A stretch of DNA of 64,000 nt from Dehalococcoidia bacterium. Lineage in GTDB: Bacteria > Chloroflexota > Dehalococcoidia > Plut-88900. The notes beneath the pieces were generated by a model. That model was not told the DNA's origin and did no database searches. It saw only the letters and a list, made by a program, of their open reading frames with translations. The translations under genes and the position numbers were made by a program. Where the stretch lies: NCBI GenBank assembly GCA_965249275.1, contig CBDFLQ010000006.1:192001-256000 (forward strand), written 5' to 3'. This document shows, piece after piece, positions 3,207 through 33,518 of this stretch. Position 1 is the stretch's first letter. The number at the start of each line of letters is the position of its first letter.

Positions 3207-3246
3207 CCCCTCTCCCTTGACGGGAGAGGGCTAGGGTGAGGGTGAA
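3207..3246. repeat. REP-like palindrome family B (CCCCTCTCCC-TTGAC-GGGAGAGGG-CTAGGGTGAGGGTGAA)
   Basis: Hairpin plus conserved tail; copies at 21899-21938 and 34842-34902, and MITE-interrupted copies at about 7415, 17942 and 48757. Confidence 0.8.
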
Positions 3247-19084: not shown

Positions 19085-21823
19085 CTACGCCATGTCTCCC
19101 CAGTTGGGGCCCATCTTTACATCCACGTTCAGGGGTACGCTCAACTCCAGCGCCGAAGACATGACCTCTCTCGCCAGCCCAGCCATCTCCTCCACTTCAT
19201 CCGACGGCGTCTCGAAGATTAGCTCGTCGTGGACCTGAAGGAGCATCCTGCTTCTCATATGGGCCTCGTCCATCCGGTTCTGCATTCCTATCATTGCCAG
19301 TTTCGTAATCTCCGCCGACGTACCCTGAATGGGCATGTTGATGGCCATCCTCTCGGCAGCCATCCTAACGTTGTGATTCCCCGAGTTTAACTCCGGGAAG
19401 TGCCGCCGCCGACCCAGCACCGTCTGCACGTACCCCTGCGCCCGAGCCTTGTGCTTCGTCACCTCCATGTATTCCTTAACGCCCGGATACCGCTCGAAGT
19501 ACTGGTTTATGAAGGTCTGGGCCTCTTCGTTGGAAAGCTCCGTCCTGGACGCCAGCCCGAACCCGCTGATCCCATATATGATGCCGAAGTTTATGGTCTT
19601 CGCAATCCGGCGCATGTCCGATGTGACCTCGTCCATCGGGACACCGTACACAAATGAAGCAGTTGCAGCGTGAATGTCCGCCCCGTCATGGAATGCCTTT
19701 ATCAGGCTCGGGTCCTCCGATATATGCGCCAGCACCCGCAGGTCTATCTGCGAATAGTCCGCCGCCAGGAGCACCCAGTCCGGATGGTCCTGCGCTATGA
19801 ACGCATGCCGCACCTGGCCGCCCAGTTCCGTGCGTATGGGTATGTTCTGCAGGTTCGGATCGTTGCTCGATACCCGGCCCGTCACAGTCCCCGTCTGGTT
19901 GAACGTCGTGTGTACCCGACCAGTGTTCGGGTTCACCAGCGACGGCAAAGCATCCAGGTATGTCGATTTGAGCTTAGATATCTGCCGGAATTCGAGCATC
20001 TTTTCCACCATCGGATGCGCGCCCCTCAGTCCTTCCAACACCCGTGCATCCGTCGAGAACCCGCTCTTGGTCCGCTTGGCGCTCGGCAGCGACAGCTCTT
20101 TGAACAGTACGTCACCAAGCTGCTTCGGCGAGTTAATGTTGAACCGGTGCCCGACGTCGTCATAGATCCCCCCCTCCAGCACCGCCATCCGCTCCCCCAA
20201 CTCCAGGGATAACCCTTGCAGCAGTTTCCCGTCCAGTGCAATCCCCGCACGTTGCATCCGCACAATGATAGGAACGAGGGGCAGCTCCACGTCGTCCATG
20301 ATTTCCCATCGCCCCTCCTCCCGCAGCTCCTTCTCGATCATCATGGATAGTCGCAGGGTAATGTCCGCATCCGCCGCCGCGTACGGGCTCGCCGACTCCA
20401 CGCTCACCTTGTCCATCGTGATCTGCTTGGATCCTGTGCCTATCAGCTCCGTGATCGGCGTCATCTCAATTCCCAGCCTGTCGAAGGAAAGCCCCTTCAG
20501 GCCCAACGACTTCTCCCCGATCAGGAAGGCTGCAATCATGCTGTCGTTGGCCAGACCCCGCACCTCTATACCGTAATTAGCCAGGATCATCATGTCGTAG
20601 TTGGCGTTGTGGGCCGTCTTGGGCAGCGACTCATCCTCGAACAGAGGCCGTAGCCTTTCTATCACCAGTTCCCTGGGCAGCTGCAGCCCCGAGTTGTGCC
20701 CCACCGGAATGTAGTACGACACCCCTGGCCTCGCCGATATCGATACACCCACGAGTCCCGCCATCATCGCGTTCAGGCTGGTCGTCTCAGTATCGAAAGC
20801 AAAGTATCCCGCCTCCCGAACTTCCGCAATCATCGCCTCAAGGGCGCCCTCATCCCGTACCATGTGGTATTCCACCGCCCCACCCCCCGACTCCCTGGCC
20901 TCGACCTCTTCGTCACTCTCCCCATCCCCACCCGGCAGCCGAGGCAGCAAACTGGAAAATTCCAGCTCCCTGAACAGTGCTACCACCGCCTCCCGGTTAA
21001 ACGCAGCCCTTGCACAAGCTGGAAGGTCCAGGTCCAAAGGCACCTGCACTATAATCCTGGCCAGGTCCACCGATAGCCTGGCCTGCGATTCATGCTCTTT
21101 CAGTAACCCTTGAATCCGTGGCGGCTTCACCTCTTCTACGTTCTTGTATATGTCCTCTATCCCCCCGAACTGCTGCACCAGCTTCGCCGCCGTCTTCGCC
21201 CCGATCCCCGGCACCCCCGGAATATTGTCCGACGTGTCCCCCATCAGCCCCTTTAGGTCTGGGATCAGGACAGGAGCCACACCGTACCTCTCCACAACCT
21301 TCTTCTCGTCGTAGAGTACGGTTTCCTTGAACATCCCTCTGGGTATAAGAGCCTTCACGTACGGATTGACCAACTGGACTATGTCGGTGTCCCCCGTGAG
21401 GATGACCGTATCAATCCCCCGCTCCGACGCCTGCTTCGACAGAGTCCCGAGAATGTCGTCCCCCTCATAGCCATCCATCTCGTAGGCCGGAATCCCAAAG
21501 GCCGCAATGAGTTCCCGTGTTCGCCTGAACTGCGCTCTCAGTTCATCCGGTGTCGACGCCCGCTGTGCCTTGTATTCCTCATATTGCAGGTGTCTGAACG
21601 TGGGTGTCGGCCTGTCGAAGACGATCGCGCAGTGAGTCGGGTCTATCTCGTCGAGAACCTTCAACAGTGCGCTGGTAAACCCGTACACCGCCCCGATAGG
21701 TTCCCCTGTCTTGTTCACAGTGAGAGGCGGCAACGCGTGAAACGCCCGATGAATCAGCGCATGCCCATCCATCAACAAAAAAAGCGGTTTCCGCTCAAGC
21801 ATAGAAGCCTGTTGGTTTGCCAT
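19085..21823 (-). CDS. polA: DNA polymerase I
   Basis: 5'-3' exonuclease (RAFHALP, GDTSDNIPGV), 3'-5' exonuclease (FDTET), polymerase motifs ADYSQIDLR, KTINFGIIYG, LLQVHDEL. Confidence 0.98.
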   Translation of the reverse strand: MANQQASMLERKPLFLLMDGHALIHRAFHALPPLTVNKTGEPIGAVYGFTSALLKVLDEIDPTHCAIVFDRPTPTFRHLQYEEYKAQRASTPDELRAQFRRTRELIAAFGIPAYEMDGYEGDDILGTLSKQASERGIDTVILTGDTDIVQLVNPYVKALIPRGMFKETVLYDEKKVVERYGVAPVLIPDLKGLMGDTSDNIPGVPGIGAKTAAKLVQQFGGIEDIYKNVEEVKPPRIQGLLKEHESQARLSVDLARIIVQVPLDLDLPACARAAFNREAVVALFRELEFSSLLPRLPGGDGESDEEVEARESGGGAVEYHMVRDEGALEAMIAEVREAGYFAFDTETTSLNAMMAGLVGVSISARPGVSYYIPVGHNSGLQLPRELVIERLRPLFEDESLPKTAHNANYDMMILANYGIEVRGLANDSMIAAFLIGEKSLGLKGLSFDRLGIEMTPITELIGTGSKQITMDKVSVESASPYAAADADITLRLSMMIEKELREEGRWEIMDDVELPLVPIIVRMQRAGIALDGKLLQGLSLELGERMAVLEGGIYDDVGHRFNINSPKQLGDVLFKELSLPSAKRTKSGFSTDARVLEGLRGAHPMVEKMLEFRQISKLKSTYLDALPSLVNPNTGRVHTTFNQTGTVTGRVSSNDPNLQNIPIRTELGGQVRHAFIAQDHPDWVLLAADYSQIDLRVLAHISEDPSLIKAFHDGADIHAATASFVYGVPMDEVTSDMRRIAKTINFGIIYGISGFGLASRTELSNEEAQTFINQYFERYPGVKEYMEVTKHKARAQGYVQTVLGRRRHFPELNSGNHNVRMAAERMAINMPIQGTSAEITKLAMIGMQNRMDEAHMRSRMLLQVHDELIFETPSDEVEEMAGLAREVMSSALELSVPLNVDVKMGPNWGDMA

Positions 21824-22033
21824 GGTCTTTTTCCTCCCCTCTCCCTTGGCCAGACCTTTACACAAACCTCCGCAAGAGGTCGCGGTGGGGCGTCCGGTCC
21901 CCTCTCTCTTGATGGGAGAGGGCTAGGGTGAGGGTGAATCCTGTCCCCCCAAAACACCCCGATTATAGCACCCCACACCCCACCCCCTTCCTGCTAATAT
22001 ACGCCCATCACCCCGCTTCAATGGGAGGCATTC

Positions 22034-22969
22034 ATGGCCCTGCGTATAGGCATGCACACCGGCGTCCAGGACGTTAGCTACCCCGACCTCCGCAAGCTCT
22101 GGCAAATCGCCGACTCCAATGGCTTTTACTGGGTCTCCGTCTGGGACCACTTCTACGAAAATCCCACCCAGGACGGCAAAAGCCCTTGCTTCGAGGCCAC
22201 GACGACGATGGCTGCCATTGCAGCGGAAACCGAAAACGTCCGCATCGGCTGCCTCGTTATGGCCATCGGCTACCGAAATCCCGCCCTTTTGGCCAAGGCC
22301 ACAGTCACCATCGACCACATCAGCAACGGGCGCGTCGAAATGGGGATCGGTGGCGGTTGGTACGAGATGGAGTTCCTAGCCTACGGCTACCCCTTCCCCC
22401 CAATAAAGACCCGGCTCGACCAACTGGAAGAAGGAGCCCAGATCATCCGCTCCATGCTCCACAACGAGTCCACGACCTTCCAAGGCAAGCACTACTCCGT
22501 CGATAACGCCTACCTCTTCCCCCGCCCCATCCAGGCCTCTCCCCGACTCTGGATAGGCGGCCTGGGAGAAAAGCGCACGCTGCGCATTACCGCTAAGTAC
22601 GCCGATGGCTGGAACGCCGCCTATGTCCCCCCCGAGATGTTCGCCGCCAAGTCCCATATCCTCGACCAATGGTGCGAGAAAGAAGGCCGTGACACCGCCT
22701 CCATCTCCCGCAGCGTTAACCTCGGCTTCTACATGGGCACCGACGAAGCCGACGCCCGAAAGAAACACGACGATATTGAAAGCGCCTGGGGTGGCGACCC
22801 CACCTACAAGCCGGGTGGAATGCTCTTCGGTACCGCGGATCAGGTCCGGGACCGCATCGGGGAATACGTGGACATCGGCGTCACCGACCTAAACATCGCC
22901 TTCCGCGCCCCCTTCGACTTCGACGCCGTCCAGTGCTTCATAGAAGAAGTAATGCCCGCCTTCCAATAA
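22034..22969 (+). CDS. LLM class oxidoreductase, probably F420-dependent
   Basis: WDHFY, YRNPALLAK, DHISNGR, WIGGLGEKRTL, YADGWN. Confidence 0.9.
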   Translation: MALRIGMHTGVQDVSYPDLRKLWQIADSNGFYWVSVWDHFYENPTQDGKSPCFEATTTMAAIAAETENVRIGCLVMAIGYRNPALLAKATVTIDHISNGRVEMGIGGGWYEMEFLAYGYPFPPIKTRLDQLEEGAQIIRSMLHNESTTFQGKHYSVDNAYLFPRPIQASPRLWIGGLGEKRTLRITAKYADGWNAAYVPPEMFAAKSHILDQWCEKEGRDTASISRSVNLGFYMGTDEADARKKHDDIESAWGGDPTYKPGGMLFGTADQVRDRIGEYVDIGVTDLNIAFRAPFDFDAVQCFIEEVMPAFQ

Positions 22970-23425
22970 CATTCACTGTCATTCCGAGGCCCCGCGAGGA
23001 ATCTAAGGCGTACCTCACCACTGACCAGATCAGCCGAGGCTGCCACACAATTTAATGTGACAAGGAACCACTCGCGCTGTCTAACATGAGCTGAAAATGG
23101 TGTGCCTTGTCCCTCTTTCTCTATGAGGCCACTGAATAACCCGTGTTGGAGGAGCCGAGACCGCTCGTGCTGTCTTAGATCCGCCTCTGGCGGGAGGCTC
23201 TCGAAATATGAGCGGGGGGCGTCCCATTCCCTCTCCCGCGACGAGACTATTGCATAACCGCCATTCCGGCCTCCGAGCCGGTCGCACATGCGTCGTGCTT
23301 AAAGCGGAACATCCGCCTCTGGAAGCTCAACCTATGGCGGAGCGTGAATCCATCCCCTAGGGGCAAGGCATTCCGCTCGCTCTGTGCCGATGCTTCCCTC
23401 TAATCTCCCTTCCCCACTAAACAAA

Positions 23426-23498
23426 GAGTAATGGGCCGTGTTGCTTCGCAACACGGCCCATTACTCAATAAAATAGGGCGGGTGGGCGGGAACCTATT
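23426..23498 (+). repeat. 19-bp hairpin plus G-quadruplex-motif module, copy 1
   Basis: Perfect 19-bp stem (23426-23466) followed by AATAAAATA-GGGCGGGTGGGCGGG-AACC; homologous to 30176-30248. Confidence 0.75.
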
Positions 23499-23532
23499 TC
23501 TCCCGAAGCAAGGAAGGGAGGGCTACCCTACC

Positions 23533-24012
23533 TCACCTCAACCGCTCCATCAACGCCTTACCCACGTGCGACGGCACAAAAGAGTCAGGGTCTCCACCAA
23601 GCTTCACCACCTCTTTCAACAGGGAAGAACTGAGAAACTGGTGCTCGAGGCTGCTCATAAACGTCACCAGTTCGATGTCCGGGGCCAGCTTCTTGTTCAT
23701 CAACGCCATCTCGAACTCACGCTCGAAGTCCGAGTTCATCCGAAGCCCTCGTATCATCACCTTGGCATTGATCTCCCGGGCGTAGTCCACGGTCAACCCC
23801 GTATACGCAACCGCTCTGATGTTCGGGAAGCCTTCCAGCGAGTCATTGATCAGGGCTATACGTTCCTCGGTATTGAATAGCAACCTCTTGTTGTCCGGTG
23901 TGGAGTAGACCGCTATTACAACCTCGTCGAACACCAAGGAGGCCCTCTTCGCGATGTCCAGGTGACCGTTGGTTACGGGATCGAAGCTCCCGGGGTATAG
24001 GGCGGTGGTCAA
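23533..24012 (-). CDS. coaD: phosphopantetheine adenylyltransferase
   Basis: YPGSFDPVTNGH, IRGLR, DFERE, LSSSLLKE. Confidence 0.97.
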   Translation of the reverse strand: MTTALYPGSFDPVTNGHLDIAKRASLVFDEVVIAVYSTPDNKRLLFNTEERIALINDSLEGFPNIRAVAYTGLTVDYAREINAKVMIRGLRMNSDFEREFEMALMNKKLAPDIELVTFMSSLEHQFLSSSLLKEVVKLGGDPDSFVPSHVGKALMERLR

Positions 24013-24563
24013 AGACTTCCCTCCGATTGAAAGATGCTCAACATTGTATCACCGTACGTCTTCTCTTTTTCCAGCACGAATCTCCCGTACCGCTCATTGA
24101 GTCCTCGACGCTTGGCATGCTCAACAATTAGCAGTCCATCAGGACTGCATAAGCCTTTCTCGCCTATCAGCCCCAGGACCCGATCAACCGGCTCATCAGC
24201 ATACGGAGGGTCCATGAAAATCAAGTCGTACTCGCCCGAGAGTGTTCCCACCGCTTTCTCCGCATCCAGCACATGCACCCGACCCCGGTCGCTCAAGCCC
24301 GTGGCCTTAAGGTTATCTCCTATTATCCGAGCCAACCCCCGGTCCCGCTCCACGAAGTCCACCCACCTCGCCCCTCGGCTCAGCGCCTCGATCCCGATCG
24401 CCCCCGTGCCTGCATACAAGTCCAGCACTCGCCTCAACTCCACCCCCGCCGAGTCCAGCATAGAAAACAGCGCCCCTCGAACACGCTCGGAGCTGGGCCG
24501 CAGCCCCGCATTCGCCGGAGCCTTCAACCTCCGCCCCTTTGCCTCACCAGCAATAACCCGCAT
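24009..24563 (-). CDS. rsmD: 16S rRNA m2G966 methyltransferase
   Basis: MRVIAG, LDLYAGTGAIGIEALSRGA, DPPY; adjacent to coaD as is usual. Confidence 0.95.
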   Translation of the reverse strand: MRVIAGEAKGRRLKAPANAGLRPSSERVRGALFSMLDSAGVELRRVLDLYAGTGAIGIEALSRGARWVDFVERDRGLARIIGDNLKATGLSDRGRVHVLDAEKAVGTLSGEYDLIFMDPPYADEPVDRVLGLIGEKGLCSPDGLLIVEHAKRRGLNERYGRFVLEKEKTYGDTMLSIFQSEGSL

Positions 24564-25234
24564 TCCAGGATTCTAAGTCCCACTCCCCCAACCCGCAACG
24601 CACCCCCACCCCATGCTCTCCGTCACCTCAACGCTCCTCCCCCTCCCCGTCACCCCGACACTCCTCCGCACTCCCGCCATCCCAACACCGCCCTGTCATC
24701 CCTACGTTCCACCGCCCCCGTCATCCCGAGGCTCCGCAAGAGATCTAGGATTTGCCCACCCACATCCCAGCACCACCCAGCCTCCCCTCCAATCCCCACG
24801 TTTGATACCGCTCATCTTTAGCCTGCTGAAAGTCCGCCGTGGCGAATCGAAGGGTCGAGCGGATACACACACCCATCTTAATAACCATACCTCCCCAAAG
24901 GGACCGCCATCGTTGTCACACTGCCCCCCTGTGACATCAACCCCTTACCCCTCCCCACCCTACTCTCCCTATAATGTCCAATGACCAATGACCAATGCAT
25001 CCCTGCGAAAAGCCTGCATGACAACAATCCGCAACTCCCTCACCACCCAACCCCCGAGCCGAAAATCAATCAATAATCATGCCTGCGCCCCGCAAACAAT
25101 CATATGCAAAGCCGTTTCCCTTTGATTGTAATATGTCAACTACCTCGCATTTCCCGAACAAAAACACCATCTTGTCACTTCCAGGCCTCGATGATAAAAT
25201 CACCCCCGACCCGACCCCCCAAACAGGTCATCAC

Positions 25235-26932
25235 TTGCCACAACACGACGTACTAGTTATAGGCGCGGGACTCGCCGGTATGAGGGCCGCTCTTGAGGCC
25301 CACCGACACGGCGCTAACGTTGCCGTTGTTTCCAAAGTTCACCCCGTCCGTAGCCACTCCAATGCCGCCCAGGGCGGCATCAACGCTGCCATGCCCGAAG
25401 AGGGCCGAGAGGACGACTGGGAGTCCCACGCCTTCGACACCGTCAAGGGCTCCGACTACCTCGGTGACCAGGACGCCATCGAGATCATGGCCCGTGAAGC
25501 CCCGAGTGACATCATCGAGCTCGAGCATATGGGCGTGATCTTCAACCGGGATGAGCGAGGCAGGCTCGGGGCACGAAGCTTCGGCGGCGCATCCTTTGCC
25601 AGGACCTTCTTCGTCGCCGACATCACCGGCCAGGCCATCCTTCACGTCATGTACGAGCAGCTGATGAAGGCCGGCATCTTCGTCTACGAAGAGTGGTTCG
25701 TCACTTCCCTCATCATGCTCGACGGAGTCTGTAAGGGCGCGGTCGCCATGGACATGCTCTCCGGCAGGATCGAGCCCATTCAGGCTAAGGCCGTGATAAT
25801 GGCAAGCGGCGGCCTGGGCCGAGTCTATGAGCCCTCCACCAACGCCATGATCTGTACCGGAGACGGCATCGCCCTCGCGTACAACGCCGGTGCTCCCCTC
25901 ATGGACATGGAGATGGTCCAGTATCACCCCACCACCCTCCCCTCCAATGGCGCCCTCCTCTCCGAGGCCGCCCGAGGCGAAGGCGCTTATCTCATAAACT
26001 CCGAGGGCGAGCGCTTCATGGGCAATTCCCGCAACCCTTATTACGCACCCAACAAGATGGAGCTCGCCTCCCGGGACGTCGTATCCCGAGCAGAACGTGT
26101 CGAAATCGACGCAGGCCGAGGCGTCGATGGCGCAATCCTTCTCGACTGTCGGCACCTGGGCAAGCAGAAAATCCTCGAACGCCTATCCCAGATCCGGGAG
26201 CTCGGCGTCCAGTTCTCGGGAGTGGACATCGCTGAGGAGCCCATCCGCATCGTGCCCGGAATGCACTACCAGATGGGGGGCATCAAGACCGACGTCACCG
26301 GCGCAACCTCCATCCCGGGCCTCTACGCCGCAGGTGAATGCGCCTGCATCAGCCTCCACGGAGGCAACCGGCTCGGGGCCAACTCCCTGCTGGAAACCGT
26401 TGTCTTTGGCAGACGCGCCGGCCTCGCCTCCGCCGAATACGCCTCCTCCCTTAGCCAGCCTATCCTTTCCAACGCCATCAAGTCCGACGAAGAGGCCCGC
26501 ATCGAGGCTATACTCAATCGGGATGCCAACAGCGACCCGCCCGCCGCGATTCGACTCGAAATGGGCCAGTCTATGCACACGAACGTAGCTGTCTTCCGCG
26601 ACGCCGACGGCCTTAAAAAGTCCCAGGAGACCCTCGTCCAGCTCAAGGAGCGCTACGCCAAAGCCTCCATTAGCGACAAAGGAAAAGTCTTCAACTACAA
26701 CCTGCTATCCTACCTCGAGTTGGGGTTTATGCTCGATTGCGCGGAGACCATCGTCGCCGGCGCAATCGTTCGCAAGGAGAGCCGCGGCGCCCATACCCGC
26801 ACCGACTACCCCGAGCGAGACGACAAAAACTGGCTCCAACATACCCTTGTCACCCTTCAGGGGGGCGAACCTCGTATCGACTATGCACCCGTTACTATTA
26901 CTAGATGGCAGCCCCAGGCCCGAACTTACTAG
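25235..26932 (+). CDS. sdhA: succinate dehydrogenase/fumarate reductase flavoprotein
   Basis: [16 protein letters not shown] (covalent FAD His), [28 protein letters not shown]; start placed at TTG 25235. Confidence 0.95.
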
Positions 26933-26953
26933 CCGACTGGAACGCGAGGGAAG

Positions 26954-27901
26954 ATGGAAGTAGCCGTTAAAATCAAACGCTTCAACCGGGAGTCGGGCTC
27001 AGGGCCATATTACGAAGACTTCAAGGTCGAGTGCGAAGAGCACGAGATGGTCCTCGACGCCCTGATAAAGATCCGCGAGTATCAGGACCAGTCCCTCGCC
27101 CTCCGCTGCTCCTGCCGCAGCGCCATCTGCGGCTCCTGCGCCATGCGGGTCAACGGCCATGCAGGACTCGCCTGCAACACCAAGATCACCGACGCCCTCT
27201 CCCGCACCGATACCATCGTCGTCGAGCCTATGGGCAACACCTCGGTAATCAAGGACCTGGTTGTAGACGCTAAGCCATTCTGGGAGAGGATAAACAAGAT
27301 TCAGCCTTGGCTCTCCCCCACCGGCCCCACCCCCGACCACGAATATATCGTTGATAACTCCGCCATGCTAGCCTTGAACCAGGTCATGGGCTGCATTATG
27401 TGCGGAGCCTGCGTCTCCGACTGCACCGTCCTGGAGGTCGACAAGCGTTTCCTCGGACCCGCGGCTCTTGCCAAGGCCCTCCGCTTCGCTGGAGATCCCA
27501 GGGACGGCATAGAAGAAGACAGGCTCAGGAAGCTCGGTCAGGCCGGTGGCATCTGGGACTGCACCCACTGCTTCGAATGCGTTCAGGTCTGCCCCAAGGG
27601 CGTAGCTCCCATGGACCAGATACTTGAGCTTCGCCGCAAGGCCGTCGAACAGGGCTTCGTCAACAACAACGGCGCCCGCCACGCCGAGTCCATGTCCAAT
27701 TCCATCAAACGAAGTGGCTGGCTGGACGAAAAGCGCCTCATCGTAGAGTCCTACGGCATCTTCAACATCAGCGCCCTTATTGGACTCATCCCCACAGCCT
27801 TCCGTTCTCTCAAAGCTAGGAAGTTGCCGCCCCTTTTCCACCACAAGCGGCCCGGTGCGGACAAAGTAAAGCGCATTTTTGAAAAGCTGGAAAGCAAGTA
27901 A
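26954..27901 (+). CDS. sdhB: succinate dehydrogenase/fumarate reductase iron-sulfur subunit
   Basis: CRSAICGSC, CIMCGACVSDC and CTHCFECVQVCP Cys motifs; C-terminal extension. Confidence 0.95.
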   Translation: MEVAVKIKRFNRESGSGPYYEDFKVECEEHEMVLDALIKIREYQDQSLALRCSCRSAICGSCAMRVNGHAGLACNTKITDALSRTDTIVVEPMGNTSVIKDLVVDAKPFWERINKIQPWLSPTGPTPDHEYIVDNSAMLALNQVMGCIMCGACVSDCTVLEVDKRFLGPAALAKALRFAGDPRDGIEEDRLRKLGQAGGIWDCTHCFECVQVCPKGVAPMDQILELRRKAVEQGFVNNNGARHAESMSNSIKRSGWLDEKRLIVESYGIFNISALIGLIPTAFRSLKARKLPPLFHHKRPGADKVKRIFEKLESK

Positions 27902-28779
27902 TGAAATACGCGTGGTATCCCGGATGCGTGTCACAAGGGGCCTGCCCCGAGCTCTTCACCGCAACCCTAGCGGTAGCCGATAAGCTCGGCATTGAGTTGG
28001 TCGAACTGAAAGAGGCCGCCTGCACTGGCGCCGGAATCCTCAGTGAGCGCAACCCTGAGCTCTCCGACACCCTGAACGCCCGCACTTTCGCCATGGCCGA
28101 GCGCCTCGGACTGCCCCTCATGACCATCTGCAGCACCTGTCAGGGCGTCATGAGTCAGGCCAACTACAAGCTCCAGAACGACCCCGAGTACCTCGCCAAG
28201 ATCAACGAGACCCTCGCCCTGGAAGACCTTGAATACAAGGGCACTACCAAGGTCAGCCACTTGCTCTGGGTAATCGTCGAGGACGTCGGTTTGGACAAGG
28301 TAGAGCCCCTGGTTGAGAGACCTCTCACCGGCGTCAAGATCGCCCCTTTCTACGGCTGCTACATCCTCCGACCCACCATGTACCTCGGCTTCGAAGACCA
28401 ACCCGAGCGTGACACCTACATCGAGAAGATCACCACTACCCTCGGCGGCATCGCCGTCGACTATTCAGGCAAGACCAAGTGCTGCGGCTTCCCCATCCTC
28501 ACCATGAACGAAAAGGCCTCCTACGCCATGGCCGGCGACCACCTCATAGAGGCCAAACAAGAGGGCGCCGACGTTATGGTAACCCCTTGCCCCCTCTGTC
28601 ATCTCAACTTGGACGGTGCCCAGCCCAAGGCAGCCAGGCAGAAGAAGATGCAGATCGGCTTACCTATCATCCACCTCCCCCAGATGATAGGATTGGCATT
28701 CGGCATCCAGCCCAAGAAGCTCGGCCTCAACCGCCACATCGTCAACACCAAGAGCTTCGTCGCCAAAGTCCCCGCCTAG
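27901..28779 (+). CDS. HdrB-like CCG-domain subunit (SdhE-type anchor)
   Basis: YPGC, CTGAG, CSTC, FYGC, CCG, CPLCH motifs; coupled to sdhB. Confidence 0.9.
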   Translation: MKYAWYPGCVSQGACPELFTATLAVADKLGIELVELKEAACTGAGILSERNPELSDTLNARTFAMAERLGLPLMTICSTCQGVMSQANYKLQNDPEYLAKINETLALEDLEYKGTTKVSHLLWVIVEDVGLDKVEPLVERPLTGVKIAPFYGCYILRPTMYLGFEDQPERDTYIEKITTTLGGIAVDYSGKTKCCGFPILTMNEKASYAMAGDHLIEAKQEGADVMVTPCPLCHLNLDGAQPKAARQKKMQIGLPIIHLPQMIGLAFGIQPKKLGLNRHIVNTKSFVAKVPA

Positions 28780-28792
28780 CCCCACCCTCGTC

Positions 28793-29920
28793 ATGCCCAA
28801 CGAAGTTGTTGACTTTGACTCCCTGGTCAAGGTCATAGAAACGATACATAAGGCCATCAGCCGGGACGGTCGTACCATCGGGGCCAACGAGACCCGCACC
28901 CGCAACACGCTCATCGATCCTCTGCTCCGCGCCCTCGGTTGGGACGATCCATCTGTGGTGACCCAAGAATATCTTGTGCGATACGGAGCGAAAGAGTTCG
29001 AATACGGCGTGGCGGACTATGCACTCCACCCGCTGGGTCAGCGCGCGAACCCCATAGCTTTTCTAGAAGCCAAACGAATGAAGGAGGATTTGACCGACGA
29101 GCACCGCAACCAGGTGTTTACCTATGTCCTAGACAAGGGGGGTAGCGTCCGGCAATTTGGTCTAACCAACGGCGACCGCTGGGAGTTCTACGAGCTCAAT
29201 GAAGACGAGCCTTGTAAGAAATTCGAGTTCTCCATCCACAAGCAGTCCGCATCGGACTGCACCGGCCTGCTTTTCAGCCATTTCCCGATGTTGAACAAAC
29301 CCCGAAACGAAGGAAACCTACAACAGGTTGAAGTCCTAATGCCTGCAATGCACAGGTCCAGTGCTCTCTCGCATGCGCCCGCTACTCACTATAGTACGTC
29401 AAACAGGTCAGCCGGTCATGTTGATGTGTACAAGATTCTGACTTGGTTCGGCGTTTCCTTTGCTATTTGGATCATCTTAGGCTGGATAGGCGGGGTTCTT
29501 GAGGCGGAGCCTGTCGAAGGTTTTTTCGCAACTTTGGGCTTGTTTGTCTCGGTATTCTTGCTTATTGCCCTGGCATTTCTCCTCTGGCGCATTTCTCCAT
29601 CTACTCTAAAATCGATTCTGAGTTTCCTACAACTGAAGCGACTGTTCGCACCAACAAGAGGAGACAGGCTCAAGACTTGGACTTTGGTAGTCGTGGCCAT
29701 AGTTGGCGGCTTCTTCGCCGGAGGGTTTCTCGGCAACTTTATAGGCTCGCTGTCGGCAAAGTCTGTAGTGTCTGCTTTGGAAATTCTGGGCCAGTTGACT
29801 ACAATTGTCCTAGTTACTGTTCTGCTCATTTCTTTTGGGGCGGGAATGGCACGTCGTTCCAGCAAGAGACGGCGGGAAGGTTGGAGGCCGCGGTCTTCCT
29901 ATCGAAAGCGGCGCTGGTAA
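28793..29920 (+). CDS. HsdR_N-like PD-(D/E)XK nuclease fused to about 4 transmembrane helices
   Basis: NETRTR...LIDPLLRALGW, ADY, LEAK, QVFTY, LTNGDRW; hydrophobic C-terminal half and Arg-rich tail. Confidence 0.8.
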   Translation: MPNEVVDFDSLVKVIETIHKAISRDGRTIGANETRTRNTLIDPLLRALGWDDPSVVTQEYLVRYGAKEFEYGVADYALHPLGQRANPIAFLEAKRMKEDLTDEHRNQVFTYVLDKGGSVRQFGLTNGDRWEFYELNEDEPCKKFEFSIHKQSASDCTGLLFSHFPMLNKPRNEGNLQQVEVLMPAMHRSSALSHAPATHYSTSNRSAGHVDVYKILTWFGVSFAIWIILGWIGGVLEAEPVEGFFATLGLFVSVFLLIALAFLLWRISPSTLKSILSFLQLKRLFAPTRGDRLKTWTLVVVAIVGGFFAGGFLGNFIGSLSAKSVVSALEILGQLTTIVLVTVLLISFGAGMARRSSKRRREGWRPRSSYRKRRW

Positions 29921-30175
29921 GGCGAAAATCCCAAGAAGTCTTCGTACCGTGGCCCAGTAAGAGCCCACCCCCCACCCCCCCCAACCCCCTTAACCCTGTC
30001 ATTCCGGTCGCCGAGAGCCGGAATCCATCCCCAAGGGCGGGGCCGTTCACCCTGAGCCCCGTCGAAGGATCGAGCGGGATGTGGTGGCCCTGCACTGCCA
30101 ATCCGTCGCGTACTATCGCCCCCACCCACTTACCTCTCATCCATCCAACAATTCCCTCCCCTCCCCCTTGGTAAC

Positions 30176-30248
30176 GACATATCAGCCATGTTGCAAAGCA
30201 ACATGGCTGATATGTCAATGAAACAGGGCGGGTGGGTGGGAACCAATT
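30176..30248 (+). repeat. 19-bp hairpin plus G-quadruplex-motif module, copy 2
   Basis: Perfect 19-bp stem (30176-30216) followed by AATGAAACA-GGGCGGGTGGGTGGG-AACC. Confidence 0.75.
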
Positions 30249-30364
30249 AAACGGGGTTGGGAGGGGCCCTACCCCCTCTCCCTCTGATATGAGAGGGTTG
30301 GGGCCGTAGGCTCGCTGAGGAGAGTGAGGGTGATTCCCCTCCTGGTAGGTGCGCCACCACCCCC

Positions 30365-30394
30365 TTGACCAAATCAAAACATTCGTGCTATATT
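30365..30394 (+). promoter_or_regulatory. sigma70-type promoter with overlapping LexA-box-like site
   Basis: TTGACC-N18-TATATT with an extended TG; the spacer contains AAAAC-ATTC-GTGCT, resembling AGAAC-N4-GTTCT. Confidence 0.55.
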
Positions 30395-30452
30395 ACATCC
30401 CAGGCTTCGGCCACGTATGTCGAGCCTAATCAGGAAAGGATCAAGGAGTCCC

Positions 30453-31103
30453 ATGAGTCGCAACAGCCTAACCAGCACACGTCGTAACCGAGCGGTATGG
30501 GACCGCCCGGCAACCGGCACGCGCCTCCTCCTTAGGCCCCAACCCTACCCCGTGTCCCTCGGCAACACCATGAATCCACTGAGGATGACCCTAATAGCCA
30601 GCGCTCCCTCTCGGCCACCTTTCCCGCAGCGACAACTCGCCGCGGATGCCTGCGGGCTCCTCCCGCAGATGATTTCCCTCGGCTACCCTGGCCACCGTGC
30701 TAGCGGCTTCGCCGCGGATGCCCGCTTTCCCTCGCCGCGGATGATAACCCACGGCTCACACCCCCAGCGAGCTTGCCCCACGACCGTGGATGCCTGCGGC
30801 ATTGCGCCGCGGATGATTTCCCGCTCCGCCCTCATCGGCGTAGAAGCGGATGCCTGCGGCATTGCGCCGCGGATGATCTCCCGCTTCTCCCTCCTTGGCG
30901 TAGAAGCGGATGCCTGCGGCATTGCGCCGCGGATGATCTCCCACGTCCCGTCCCAGGCCGCAGAGGGAGCGCTGGCAACCCTCATCCTCACCTTGTCCCA
31001 GTCCCTTTCCCTCTGTCCATCTTCCTCCCGTAGGGGCGACTGGCCGGTCGCCCTGGGGACAGGAATCCCCACCCCCCTCCACCCACGAAAGGAGGCTGTC
31101 TAA
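30453..31103 (+). CDS. hypothetical repeat-containing ORF (ADACGIAPRMIS-like x5); coding status uncertain
   Basis: AAGGAG RBS; repeat periods of 72 and 60 nt keep the frame. There is no recognisable domain and the 3' part runs through REP-like DNA. Confidence 0.4.
   Translation: MSRNSLTSTRRNRAVWDRPATGTRLLLRPQPYPVSLGNTMNPLRMTLIASAPSRPPFPQRQLAADACGLLPQMISLGYPGHRASGFAADARFPSPRMITHGSHPQRACPTTVDACGIAPRMISRSALIGVEADACGIAPRMISRFSLLGVEADACGIAPRMISHVPSQAAEGALATLILTLSQSLSLCPSSSRRGDWPVALGTGIPTPLHPRKEAV
30624..30940. repeat. tandem array of ten hairpins with fixed ATGC / ATGATHWC linkers
   Basis: Five units starting 30642, 30714, 30786, 30846 and 30906, consensus GCGGATGCCTGCGGCATTGCGCCGCGGATGAT; the stems covary. 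Confidence 0.85.
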
Positions 31104-31272
31104 CCTCCCACACTCCACAACCGAATATGAAACATCCGCCTTTGGCGGAGCCGCTTCAACAGGGCCAAAAACTTCACAACCTGGATGCGGGGGCGGTCCC
31201 CCACCCCTCACATAAGAGAAAAGCGCCGACCCAATCGCCAGCGCTTTCCCTGCTCAAAGCGGAATATGCAGG

Positions 31273-32307
31273 TCAATTCCTGAAGTAAGGCATCACCTTC
31301 TCGGATATCTCCCTCATCATCCCCTTCTTGTCGATAATCGAGAACAGTACCGTGGAAACGTTGTCTATCCCGAGCGGCTGCAGCTTCTCGATCTGCTCCC
31401 CGATATCATCCGGAGTCCCCGACAACATGAATGTGTCGATCACTCGCGGCGACACAACCAGGGAGTGCGGTGCGTCCGTCAATTCGTGCTGGTACGGATC
31501 GAAGGCGTCATATACCGCTTTGATCTCCTCAACTATGCCCGGTTGCACCTCTTCCATCCGGTTCCGCAGGTCCTCGACCTCCGGGGTCTGTCGTCTCAAC
31601 AGCGACCTGTACATCTCACACGCACACGTTGCCGCATAGGAAGCCACTTCCCTCCGAGCCGCTTCCTTGGAAGGCGCAACGTAGATCATAGTACGCGCCC
31701 ATTTATCTATGTCGTCCAGCGACCTCCCCGCCTTCTCCGCCCCCTTCTCCATTACCTCCAGGCTCCACTTCAAGATCGTCGGATTCACGCCTATCAGGAT
31801 CGCTCCCTCCGCCAACTCCCCAGTCATCCGCAAAGACTTTGGCCCGACTGTTGCCATGTACACGGGAATCTGCCTGCGGCTCCACTCCGAGTGCATCATC
31901 GCACCGTCGTACTCCACTTCCTTGCCCGCCGTGTACCCCTTGAAGAACTCGATTACATTCCGAAATTCGTCCATCGACCGCGCCTTCATCCCCATCGTCA
32001 TCACCGAGCTAAACCCCGCCCCGATCCCGAGAAATGCCCTTCCACCTGACAGTTCATTCACTGTCGCCGTGCCATTCGCCGTCACTGATGGATGCCGCGT
32101 GAACGGGTTTGTCACCCCATGCCCGATGTGAATCCGGTGCGTGTTTACTGCCGCCACAGTCATCATTGAATATACTTCCCGGCACAGGTTCTGCGAATCG
32201 ATAAGGGTCATTTGCTTGAATCCGCAGTCCTCCGCAACCTGGGCGTGAGTAGCAACCTCATCAAGCCTCAGGTTCCGCCCCATGCCGACACTGAAATCGA
32301 ATTTCAT
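31273..32307 (-). CDS. LLM class flavin-dependent oxidoreductase (Mer-like)
   Basis: DSQ, GVTNPFTRHP, ELSGGRAFLGIGAG, GPKSL. Confidence 0.9.
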   Translation of the reverse strand: MKFDFSVGMGRNLRLDEVATHAQVAEDCGFKQMTLIDSQNLCREVYSMMTVAAVNTHRIHIGHGVTNPFTRHPSVTANGTATVNELSGGRAFLGIGAGFSSVMTMGMKARSMDEFRNVIEFFKGYTAGKEVEYDGAMMHSEWSRRQIPVYMATVGPKSLRMTGELAEGAILIGVNPTILKWSLEVMEKGAEKAGRSLDDIDKWARTMIYVAPSKEAARREVASYAATCACEMYRSLLRRQTPEVEDLRNRMEEVQPGIVEEIKAVYDAFDPYQHELTDAPHSLVVSPRVIDTFMLSGTPDDIGEQIEKLQPLGIDNVSTVLFSIIDKKGMMREISEKVMPYFRN

Positions 32308-32540
32308 ATATTATTTCCTCTCTTTCATGACCCTTTCCTAAGGGCGGCATTACCCTATCAACCACCCTAATCCTGTGTCAACGCCATGCTCCTTTAATAC
32401 TGTCATTCCGAGGCTCCGAGAGGAATCTCAAGCGTATGCCTACATCTCAGCTCCTATTGTTCGACTCACCGCCCTTGAACCAATATCCCCAGACGAGTAC
32501 GATTGACCTCATACCCACCGACTACTAGGAGAACCCCCCA

Positions 32541-33518
32541 ATGGCCGTACCACCCCAAGGCGAACTCCACAGACCTCTACTGGAAATATCTGCAGAGGCC
32601 AAGGAAGCCCTGTCGGCGAAGCAATTCCTCAACGAAATAGTCGTACGATTTTCGTTGACACCGGAAGACCTGAGCGAAATGATTCCATCAAGCTATCAGT
32701 CTCGGATTTTGAACAGGGTGGTTTGGGGGCTTTATGAGTTAGCCAAGGCCGGATTACTTGAAAGACCCTCTAGTGGGCGTTATCAAATAACCACTACAGG
32801 CCAGGACTATCTCAAGAAACATAGTGGCAAAATCACGACTTCCCAACTGAAGAAACTAGTAACCCAACATATGCACGAAGACTCTAGCTCTCCACTAACA
32901 ATGCCTCCCAACCTCACCGCCACGGCCAGCACCCCGAACGATGACGACACTTCTCCCCAAGACAAAATCGACGCTGGATACCGCGAACTACGGGATAAGC
33001 TAGTCGACGATCTGCTGGACAGCATCTCCCAAATGTCCCCTGAAAGCTTCGAACGGCTGGTTGTGGACTTACTGCAAAAGATGGGTTACGGCAAAGGCCA
33101 GGTCGTGGGCAAAAGTGGTGACCGCGGTATAGATGGCATCATCAACCAAGATGCTCTGGGATTGGAAAAAGTCTACATACAGGCCAAGCGATGGAAAGGA
33201 CAAGTCAGTGAACCGGAAATTCGCAACTTCTCCGGCAGCTTAGACTTCCAGGGAGCCAGCAAGGGCGTCTTTGTTACTACTTCTCGATTCTCTGCAAAGG
33301 CTCGTGATACCGCTAAACAAAGCAAGTTAACCATCCGCCTCATAGACGGCCCGGAGTTGGCAAAGCTGATGATGGACTTCGAGGTAGGCGTAGTCACCCA
33401 ATATGCTTACAAAATCCAAGAACTCGACCAAAACTACTTCATAGATGCGGACCCTGATTTCTTAGATAGGGAAAGTCACTACATGGATATGTACAGTGAC
33501 TCATTCCAACCTCGCTGA
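32541..33518 (+). CDS. mrr: Mrr-family (type IV) restriction endonuclease
   Basis: N-terminal winged helix (NRVVW...KAGLL), FERLVVDLL, DRGIDG, IQAKRW, KGVFVTTS, LIDG; visibly lower GC than the flanks. Confidence 0.92.
   Translation: MAVPPQGELHRPLLEISAEAKEALSAKQFLNEIVVRFSLTPEDLSEMIPSSYQSRILNRVVWGLYELAKAGLLERPSSGRYQITTTGQDYLKKHSGKITTSQLKKLVTQHMHEDSSSPLTMPPNLTATASTPNDDDTSPQDKIDAGYRELRDKLVDDLLDSISQMSPESFERLVVDLLQKMGYGKGQVVGKSGDRGIDGIINQDALGLEKVYIQAKRWKGQVSEPEIRNFSGSLDFQGASKGVFVTTSRFSAKARDTAKQSKLTIRLIDGPELAKLMMDFEVGVVTQYAYKIQELDQNYFIDADPDFLDRESHYMDMYSDSFQPR

Follow-up and report, generated by a model that had tools for sequence, protein, structure and literature searches.

What is the element that occurs twice in a 64,000-nt stretch of the genome of a Dehalococcoidia bacterium, and what could it do at the ends of genes? 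The stretch (hereafter the window) covers positions 192001-256000 of contig C6 of the genome that we call G000, which comprises 2.9 Mb in seven contigs. Each copy of the element (hereafter the module) consists of a perfect 19-bp palindrome, an A-tract, and the four-GGG motif GGGCGGGTGGGYGGG. Small repeats between genes tend to be written off as junk or assigned to REP, and four G3 runs with 1-nt loops are among the most stable G-quadruplex (G4) motif types. The family described here joins three traits: a palindrome that is perfect at each locus despite drift, a G4 motif of the very stable type, and an orientation that is tied to base composition and runs against the trend of other G4 motifs. 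On the analyses below, each copy is best explained as one unit of a mosaic intergenic repeat that is present throughout the genus and similar in kind to REP/BIME, and we tentatively propose that it marks the borders of transcription units.

Layout of the two copies in the window

The hairpin arms of copy 1 (23426-23444 and 23448-23466) and copy 2 (30176-30194 and 30198-30216) are 19 nt each, 100% complementary, and separated by a 3-nt loop; the palindromes, which have no strand, span 23426-23466 and 30176-30216. The arms of the two copies differ at 6 of 19 positions (3, 4, 5, 8, 9, and 13), and the opposite arm mirrors each difference. Direct reading and a complementarity check thus bear out the initial annotation, which had described paired 19-bp hairpins with all six differences compensated.

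On the plus strand, the copy 1 palindrome is preceded by the pyrimidine tract CTAATCTCCCTTCCCC with the linker ACTAAACAAA (23400-23425) and followed by the A-tract AATAAAATA (23467-23475), the G-run GGGCGGGTGGGCGGG (23476-23490; located by pattern search and followed by AACCTATT), and the conserved 3' flank AACCTATTTCTCCC (23491-23504). Copy 2 repeats this order on the same strand, with the tract CCCTCCCCTCCCCC and linker TTGGTAAC at 30154-30175, the A-tract AATGAAACA at 30217-30225, the G-run GGGCGGGTGGGTGGG at 30226-30240 (pattern search; then AACCAATT), and the flank AACCAATTAAAC at 30241-30252. The A-tract, four-GGG motif, and 3' flank that had been noted after both hairpins are therefore shared as described, and the C-rich DNA noted ahead of them is the pyrimidine tract found in each copy. 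A GGAGGG..CTACCC tail, also listed there, is present but is the weakest part of that description: a disrupted BoxC-like unit begins with it in copy 2, and copy 1 shows only a short likeness.

A canonical G4 motif (four runs of at least three G with short loops) is present in both copies. The G-run pattern alone gave two matches in the window against 0.34 expected, which is not significant, as 6 of 100 shuffles also reached two. Single-stranded DNA folds of the four strands of the two copies had energies of -27.1 to -31.8 kcal/mol, with z-scores of -6.9 to -8.1.

A genus-wide family with private palindromes

An nhmmer profile of the unit recovered 18 copies in G000, comprising 14 with a hairpin, one with a decayed hairpin, and three without; in two of the hairpin-less copies, the loss falls between self-palindromic GATATATC arm ends. 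The unit, approximately 105 nt long, runs from a pyrimidine tract through a perfect 19-bp palindrome particular to its locus, an A-tract of 9 nt, and GGGCGGGTGGGYGGG to a short flank rich in A and T. In the 14 aligned hairpin copies, 98.5% of stem cells were paired, compared with 84.0% in shuffles and 18-46% for slid partners. Two-sided changes occurred at 13 of the 19 stem pairs and one-sided changes at none, and 0 of 500 shuffles reached 13. Unlike the G-run pattern by itself, the composite module thus greatly exceeds chance.

The unit was also detected in all eight other genomes of the genus. A covariance model gave 8 to 25 matches per genome in five congeners, with both strands counted because the stem is palindromic. 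For the tallies, nhmmer hits at E <= 1e-6 over loci L018-L058 gave 36 rows, five of them repeats of a place already counted, and hence 31 distinct congener copies; loci with only weak model matches (L026-L028, L053, and L058) gave no nhmmer row. Together with the 14 own copies this makes 45, from which L043 was dropped because a repeat inserted in its loop misled the hairpin finder, leaving 44 hairpin copies.

Watson-Crick pairs accounted for 815 of 827 stem pairs in these 44 copies. The 12 mismatches, comprising three wobbles on the module (plus) strand, four on the other strand, and five transversions, showed no strand preference; we considered the wobble asymmetry as a pointer to an RNA strand, but 3 versus 4 cannot choose. 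The strict motif of four G3 runs with 1-nt loops was found in 32 of 44 copies (31 by script and L025 by eye), one further copy had four runs, one was ambiguous, and 10 had a broken run. Among the 31 script-found strict copies, the loops were C (30/31), T (30/31), and, in third place, C, T, or A (22, 8, and 1), and the stem-to-first-G distance was 9 nt in 22 and 8-10 nt in 29. Arms of congener copies may differ wholly (e.g., GAAATACCAGCCATTCCGC and GTGATAGAGGAGTGATGTGC) while AATAAAACA and the G-run remain unchanged; therefore, the stem is kept as structure and the A-tract and G-run as sequence. The 18 own copies and the presence in 8/8 congeners agree with the initial annotation in its view of a repeated structured element; the covariance-model and relatives search that it had suggested recovered copies throughout the genus, and the G-run and spacing, whose retention it had left to be checked, are both kept in most copies.

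Position at gene ends and upstream of a promoter

Copy 1 lies between convergent genes, namely, a luciferase-like (LLM) monooxygenase gene (22034-22969, plus strand) and a coaD/rsmD-like pair (23533-24563, minus strand; domain matches CTP_transf_like and Cons_hypoth95) whose 3' end faces the G-run side of the module. The G-run strand is the template strand of this pair. Copy 1 is the best terminator-like site on the minus strand, with a 19-pair stem and the tail TTTGTTTAGT located 67 nt past the coaD stop; this tail is the linker read on the minus strand, where it forms a T-rich stretch 3' of the hairpin. From these features, copy 1 looks like the intrinsic terminator of coaD-rsmD. Across the 44 copies, the mean number of T in the 8 nt after the hairpin, in the reading direction of a convergent gene no more than 150 nt from the G-run side, was 3.9 (n = 11, drawn from approximately seven independent loci) versus 2.4 for the others (n = 33).

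Copy 2 sits 231 nt beyond the last gene of an sdh/frd-like operon (25079-29920, plus strand), and the promoter TTGACC-18-TATATT with TG (30365-30394, plus strand) lies 125 nt beyond its G-run. This promoter belongs to a family with the conserved upstream sequence GTGACACGAACCCC and 63 occurrences in G000. Of the 18 own modules, 13 have a family promoter within 300 nt downstream, in the same orientation, as do 15 of the 31 in congeners, and the spacer from G-run to promoter is 25 to approximately 125 nt and may contain a BoxC-like unit. Approximately 13 of the 63 promoter copies carry the module just upstream; the promoter element also occurs without it, and only two of 13 aligned long copies have a module there. 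Many modules follow a co-oriented gene, according to rough gene calls from open reading frames (ORFs) and codon scores.

Strand polarity against the compositional trend

GC skew in G000 is strong and patchy, at -0.15 to -0.19 over C6:0-500 kb, and its sign switches in blocks of 50-500 kb on contigs C5-C7. In all 18 own copies, the strand bearing the module G-run was the locally C-rich one (20-kb windows), with a skew near 0 in one case. The same held for 30 of 31 congener copies when flanks of approximately 1.9 kb were used with the module and 800 nt downstream removed, a count that includes orthologous and thus nonindependent copies. The five own copies without the promoter were equally polar, and the promoter family is polar too (53/63; 49/55 where |skew| > 0.05). 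Genes of G000 show no strand bias, and tRNA orientation (13/23), tried as a guide to the leading strand, fixes nothing. Of the other G4 motifs of G000, 149 were on the G-rich and 64 on the C-rich strand, whereas the family G-runs numbered 0 and 12. General selection against G4 on one template strand was set aside as an explanation because the other motifs are mostly on the G-rich strand.

The leading strand is usually G-rich. The position of dnaA agrees with this rule in three congeners: in G002 it is at a switch from negative to approximately zero or positive skew, and G007 and G008 have it on the G-rich strand. The pattern is broken in G000 and G005, and both dnaA and the 16S gene of G000 are on the C-rich strand. 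The assignment of the leading strand in this genus is not certain; if the usual rule holds, the G-run would be on the leading-strand template and the family promoters would fire head-on to replication.

Turnover and constraint at orthologous loci

Three of nine genomes (G000, G005, and G003) have the module at the copy 1 locus. In G002, G001, G004, G006, G007, and G008 it is absent, and other small repeats are found there instead. In the G003 orthologue, a single G-C pair has become A-T, with both arms altered. The copy 2 locus is filled by the module in G005; G002 instead carries another repeat (GTCATTCCGAGG...) there, interrupted by an insertion sequence (IS) whose core is of the rve type. 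Orthologous loci with and without the module differ by entire neighboring modules, and no clean insertion junction or target duplication was readable at them; terminal inverted repeats and target duplications, the hallmarks of a MITE, were not recognized.

Orthologous copies keep their private hairpin sequences across species, and paralogues are approximately 93-96% alike. The module is identical at 105 of 105 positions between G000 and G005, with 93% identity at third codon positions of coaD, and differs at approximately six positions between G000 and G003, with 92% identity at third positions. These comparisons suggest, although not firmly, that the module is under constraint.

An IS with an rve-type transposase and the ends TGTAAGTGTTAGGTAATTCGTTGACAG was seen at L101:330-1410 (G002) and in G000 on C7 just upstream of 453195, both times inserted at ATTCC within the repeat GTCATTCCGAGGCYCCGCGAGG beside module loci; from this shared insertion point it looks like a repeat-targeting IS.

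Distribution beyond the genus

A profile search did not find the module in three genomes from sister genera within the family, and it gave only three marginal matches (E about 4e-4) across the 49 further genomes of the class that were searched. Exact G-run matches occurred in only five of 300 other Chloroflexota genomes, with one or two each, and in none of the viral contigs. An exact scan for AAAACAGGGCGGGTGGGYGGG over 185,579 species, with one genome each, returned 20 stretches, of which 17 came from records named "MAG: Dehalococcoidia bacterium" (MAG, metagenome-assembled genome), two from one "MAG: Nitrospirae bacterium", and one, without a hairpin, from a Faecalibacterium MAG.

The Nitrospirae MAG (G061; loci L088-L100) gave 13 matches with up to two mismatches, compared with three for a reversed control, and the layout was examined in the 12 at a locus centre. 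All 12 have an A-rich run and the same G-run, preceded at 3-25 nt by a GC hairpin of approximately 4-10 bp (GGGGC-NNN-GCCCC type), and all 12 G-runs are on the locally C-rich strand, where the skew is small. The G-run side is approximately 7-12 nt from the stop of a convergent ORF in four or five of the 12, and several copies are followed within 15-25 nt by TTGACA-N17-TATACT. A metagenome scan gave seven stretches. Three on one low-GC contig and one on a high-GC contig (L108-L111) share the order of hairpin, A-rich run, and G-run and represent two lineages; of the other three, two are of the Dehalococcoidia type and one is without a hairpin. Judged by this layout, the combination of GC hairpin, A-rich run, and identical G-run forms separate families in the Nitrospirae MAG and the two metagenomic lineages, and the G4 motif is letter-for-letter constant across phyla.

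Comparison with known families

No Rfam family matched the window at the gathering threshold, with the best subthreshold scores being 25.9 versus 50 bits and 28.7 versus 84 bits, and a literature search, which did not cover supplements, turned up no account of a repeat of this kind in Dehalococcoidia. The absence of a named family, as the initial annotation had it, therefore stands, also with regard to the BoxC/TM_ECO consensus considered below. A linked nuclease or transposase gene, which it had proposed to look for, did not turn up: the Y1 HUH transposase (RAYT, PF01797) was found neither in G000 nor in any of the nine genomes of the genus, six of them single-contig (a control matched in 6 of 14 known genomes), and TnpB (PF07282) was not found in G000.

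REP/BIME and REPIN of Enterobacteria and Pseudomonas, which go with RAYT transposases, are, as described, likewise short multicopy intergenic palindromes: they combine with other small modules into mosaics, are found mostly where genes end, and come and go at orthologous loci (PMC3333891, PMC3116915). Unlike REP/RAYT systems, the module has no RAYT/Y1 partner in the nine genomes, and its copies are single rather than inverted pairs. Its palindrome differs between copies, with 13 of 19 pairs changed on both sides, instead of being one conserved palindrome, and is accompanied by an invariant A-tract and G-run and by strict strand polarity. IS200/IS605 ends, or palindrome elements derived from them, would be expected to carry two different subterminal hairpins in a genome with TnpA (Y1) and often TnpB, whereas the unit has one hairpin, and neither PF01797 (genus) nor PF07282 (G000) was present.

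The intergenic BoxC/PIT/TM_ECO elements of Escherichia coli, described as an HPGQ (G-quadruplex-hairpin) switch, combine a C-rich arm with G-runs and can form a hairpin or a G4 (PMC4666352, PMC5100583). The module shares the intergenic setting, the C-rich tract, and the G-runs; its C-tract, however, is 58 nt off and not complementary. Membership was rejected because GGGCGGGTGGGYGGG does not fit the consensus given for the group, CCCTCNCCC-N3-6-GGGNGAGGG-N3-GGGNGAGGG (PMC4666352). The same report describes TM_ECO as having no strand-orientation bias (PMC4666352), whereas the module is polar. In a pattern search of the window for BoxC/TM_ECO, only 3208-3242 (CCCTCTCCCTTGACGGGAGAGGGCTAGGGTGAGGG) matched exactly, and the module did not. 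BoxC-like units directly adjoin several module copies in G000, and the one near copy 2 (30267-30335, plus strand; CCCTCTCCC..GAGAGGG..GTGAGGG) is interrupted by approximately 20 nt and separate from the module.

Copy 1 resembles an intrinsic (Rho-independent) terminator in being a strong hairpin at a gene end with a T-rich tail, and the few loci of its subtype share this form. By contrast, most copies have no T-tail on either strand, copy 2 and most others having two or three T in 8 nt, and the module has an A-tract after the hairpin and a T-rich run before it. Correia elements of Neisseria are small promoter-linked repeats that shape the expression of neighboring genes; here, the promoter belongs to a separate element of approximately 63 copies, and the module is an optional upstream neighbor. 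Mitochondrial CSB II is a G4 of transcription termination. The pilE G4 of Neisseria is an element upstream of a gene (PMC5100583). Both resemble the module in having G3 runs with very short loops near a transcription start or stop and in their orientation dependence, but they are single loci with demonstrated function, whereas the module is a dispersed family known from sequence alone.

A candidate boundary element and its rivals

The reading that we favor, with somewhat less than even confidence, is that the module is a DNA-level boundary element at transcription-unit borders, that is, a two-way stop or insulator. The Watson-Crick stems without strand-biased wobble, the 3-nt loops, the easily melted A-tract, and the stable type of G4 motif point to a structure at the DNA level rather than an RNA gene, and the absence of strand preference among stem mismatches is expected if the structure is needed on both DNA strands. 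The terminator-like form of copy 1, the T-richer tails facing convergent genes, and the typical site ahead of a strong promoter favor a two-way stop or insulator in particular. We also count in its favor the Nitrospirae copies near convergent stops and TTGACA-N17-TATACT, and the complete identity of the G000 and G005 modules relative to third positions of coaD. A gene entering from the G-run side would present RNA polymerase with the G-run on the template strand and then with the hairpin, which in those copies bears the T-rich tail; copy 1 would end coaD-rsmD transcription by this succession. For transcription from the other side, the hairpin and then the non-template G-run would hinder read-through into the strong promoter 25-125 nt downstream, and copy 2, which follows the sdh-like operon and precedes a promoter, would be of this kind. 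The family itself, its paired palindrome, the retention of G-run and spacing, the sites, the association with the promoter, and the polarity are observed; folding into a cruciform or G4, the effect on RNA polymerase, and the reason for the polarity are what we infer. The family offers a clean natural system for asking whether bacteria use G4 and cruciform DNA as border signals in transcription or replication.

Several observations weigh against a boundary function. Most copies are not canonical terminators either way, their tails being GTTAYCAA on one strand and AATAAAACA on the other, and the upstream gene is divergent in approximately 40% of copies by the rough gene calls, which leaves no obvious client for a stop. 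Ten of 44 G-runs are broken, and the hairpin is lost in three of 18 own copies. Genes and tRNAs are not polar, so a function in transcription leaves the polarity unexplained. Relative to G003, the module diverges about as fast as silent sites, and no transcript ends were seen, the sole RNA data being assembled contigs of relatives. Full compensation alone is also no proof of selection for an RNA fold: template switching during replication is reported to be able to keep palindromes perfect (PMC8794818, PMC7202029), and perfect compensation may owe as much to such switching between the arms as to selection.

It is possible, although we consider it doubtful, that the module is instead the relic of a small selfish mobile repeat without host function, spread long ago by a fork-tied single-strand DNA route that fixed its orientation, with template switching keeping the arms. 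Its patchy spread would fit, as the module occurs in one genus but not in three sister genera and essentially not in 300 other Chloroflexota, yet reappears in a Nitrospirae MAG and in two other metagenomic lineages, a pattern expected of horizontal spread. So would the variable presence at orthologous loci (three of nine filled at copy 1, and none in G002 at copy 2), the decayed copies, and the strict polarity (18/18 and 30/31), given that fork-coupled single-strand transposons have been described to target the lagging-strand template (PMC6006769, PMC5027513) and that template switching can create as well as keep perfect stems (PMC8794818). Such an origin is harder to reconcile with the failure to find Y1/RAYT in nine of nine genomes or TnpB in G000 and to recognize terminal inverted repeats or target duplications. 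Moreover, because orthologues keep private hairpins and paralogues are only approximately 93-96% alike, there is no sign of recent movement, and copies with entirely unlike hairpins still share the A-tract and G-run sequences. We think it unlikely that the module is a cis signal linked to replication or recombination, in which a dedicated enzyme or the replisome would recognize hairpin and conserved sequence on single-stranded DNA. The comparison here is with polar signals of chromosomes and with origins made of a hairpin plus a nick site. The polarity opposes the compositional trend (0 G-rich and 12 C-rich family G-runs versus 149 and 64), is shared by the Nitrospirae MAG (12/12), and extends to the five own promoter-less copies, and a structure-only hairpin beside a sequence-conserved 25-nt core suits a protein that reads fold and sequence. 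A genome has only approximately 18-25 copies, however, which cluster at gene ends and promoters rather than being evenly spaced; no candidate enzyme was found, the patchy skew makes the present direction of replication uncertain, and the C-rich-strand placement of the 16S gene and dnaA in G000 leaves the leading strand unsure.

Least probable, in our judgment, is that the module acts as RNA, as a stabilizer in the 3' untranslated region or as a cis-regulatory or small RNA in which the pyrimidine tract would pair with the G-runs in competition with an RNA G-quadruplex. RNAalifold did draw an outer helix of nine pairs between the pyrimidine tract and the G-runs, with C-to-U changes that keep G-U on the plus strand only, and many copies follow a co-oriented gene. 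That helix has just two two-sided changes, and any pyrimidine tract pairs with G-runs; the main stem is without strand-biased wobble, Rfam gave no match, and the module has no promoter of its own but lies upstream, not downstream, of the family promoter. A bolder proposal, to which we give only a small chance, is that hairpin, A-tract, and GGGCGGGTGGGYGGG form a conserved strand-polar chromosomal signal common to unrelated lineages, which a dedicated factor would recognize at the replication fork or at the borders of transcription units. If true, the family would be a G-quadruplex-based counterpart of polar signals such as Chi, KOPS, and Ter, and not a passive repeat.

The promoter-driven element and neighboring repeats

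The family promoter heads an ORF-less element of 260-690 nt, the long form of which is closed by GGCGATGGAAGGTCC...GGACCTTCCATCGCC, a 15-nt long-range helix. In the window, a member of this promoter-driven family lies at 30340-31100, with the stretch 30400-31100 (plus strand) following its promoter; it contains 72-nt internal tandem repeats and has RNA contigs mapping onto it; a 228-aa ORF within 30400-31100 had no Pfam match. Metatranscriptome contigs from four runs over 21000-33000 were mostly 90-95% alike, and therefore from relatives, and strands and ends were not readable from them; one run bears the label sponge metagenome, from which we derive no habitat. Their cover was higher in bins 30223-31024 than in 29822-30222, which, from contigs without strand or ends, gives no verdict on the module.

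Two further candidates within the unit were rejected. A minus-strand promoter from the G-run flanks (TTGAGT-N17-TTTTAT) has a second hexamer without A at position 2, and its hexamers are not kept in the Nitrospirae copies; TTGGT/ACCAA pairing across the unit was, by eye, not retained in other copies.

For the annotation of uncultured Dehalococcoidia, these observations describe intergenic regions as mosaics of such modules, mobile promoters, and ORF-less RNA elements. At many G000 loci, as at 29975-30075 and 23240-23290 in the window, small repeats lie upstream of the module (CATTCCGG-N9-CCGGAATCCATCCCC and GCCGCTCACCCTGAGCNCCGTCGAAGGGTCGAGCGGG), with their order constant in six loci. At 21898-21938, a segment of approximately 40 nt reached a summed RNA-contig depth of up to 16,700, with many contigs diverging on both sides, and is probably a high-copy short repeat. 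Elsewhere in G000, a DNA methyltransferase-like gene (IYLDPPFNS motif; C6:921023-922411, minus strand) starts 46 nt from a module hairpin, too close for its own promoter to fit outside the module. A 317-aa ORF occurs at C7:901507-902460 and C7:249287-250240, and the 133 nt downstream of it recur approximately 10 times at 100% identity; this element is a young IS, located at the same CTAG approximately 60 nt upstream of two module copies.

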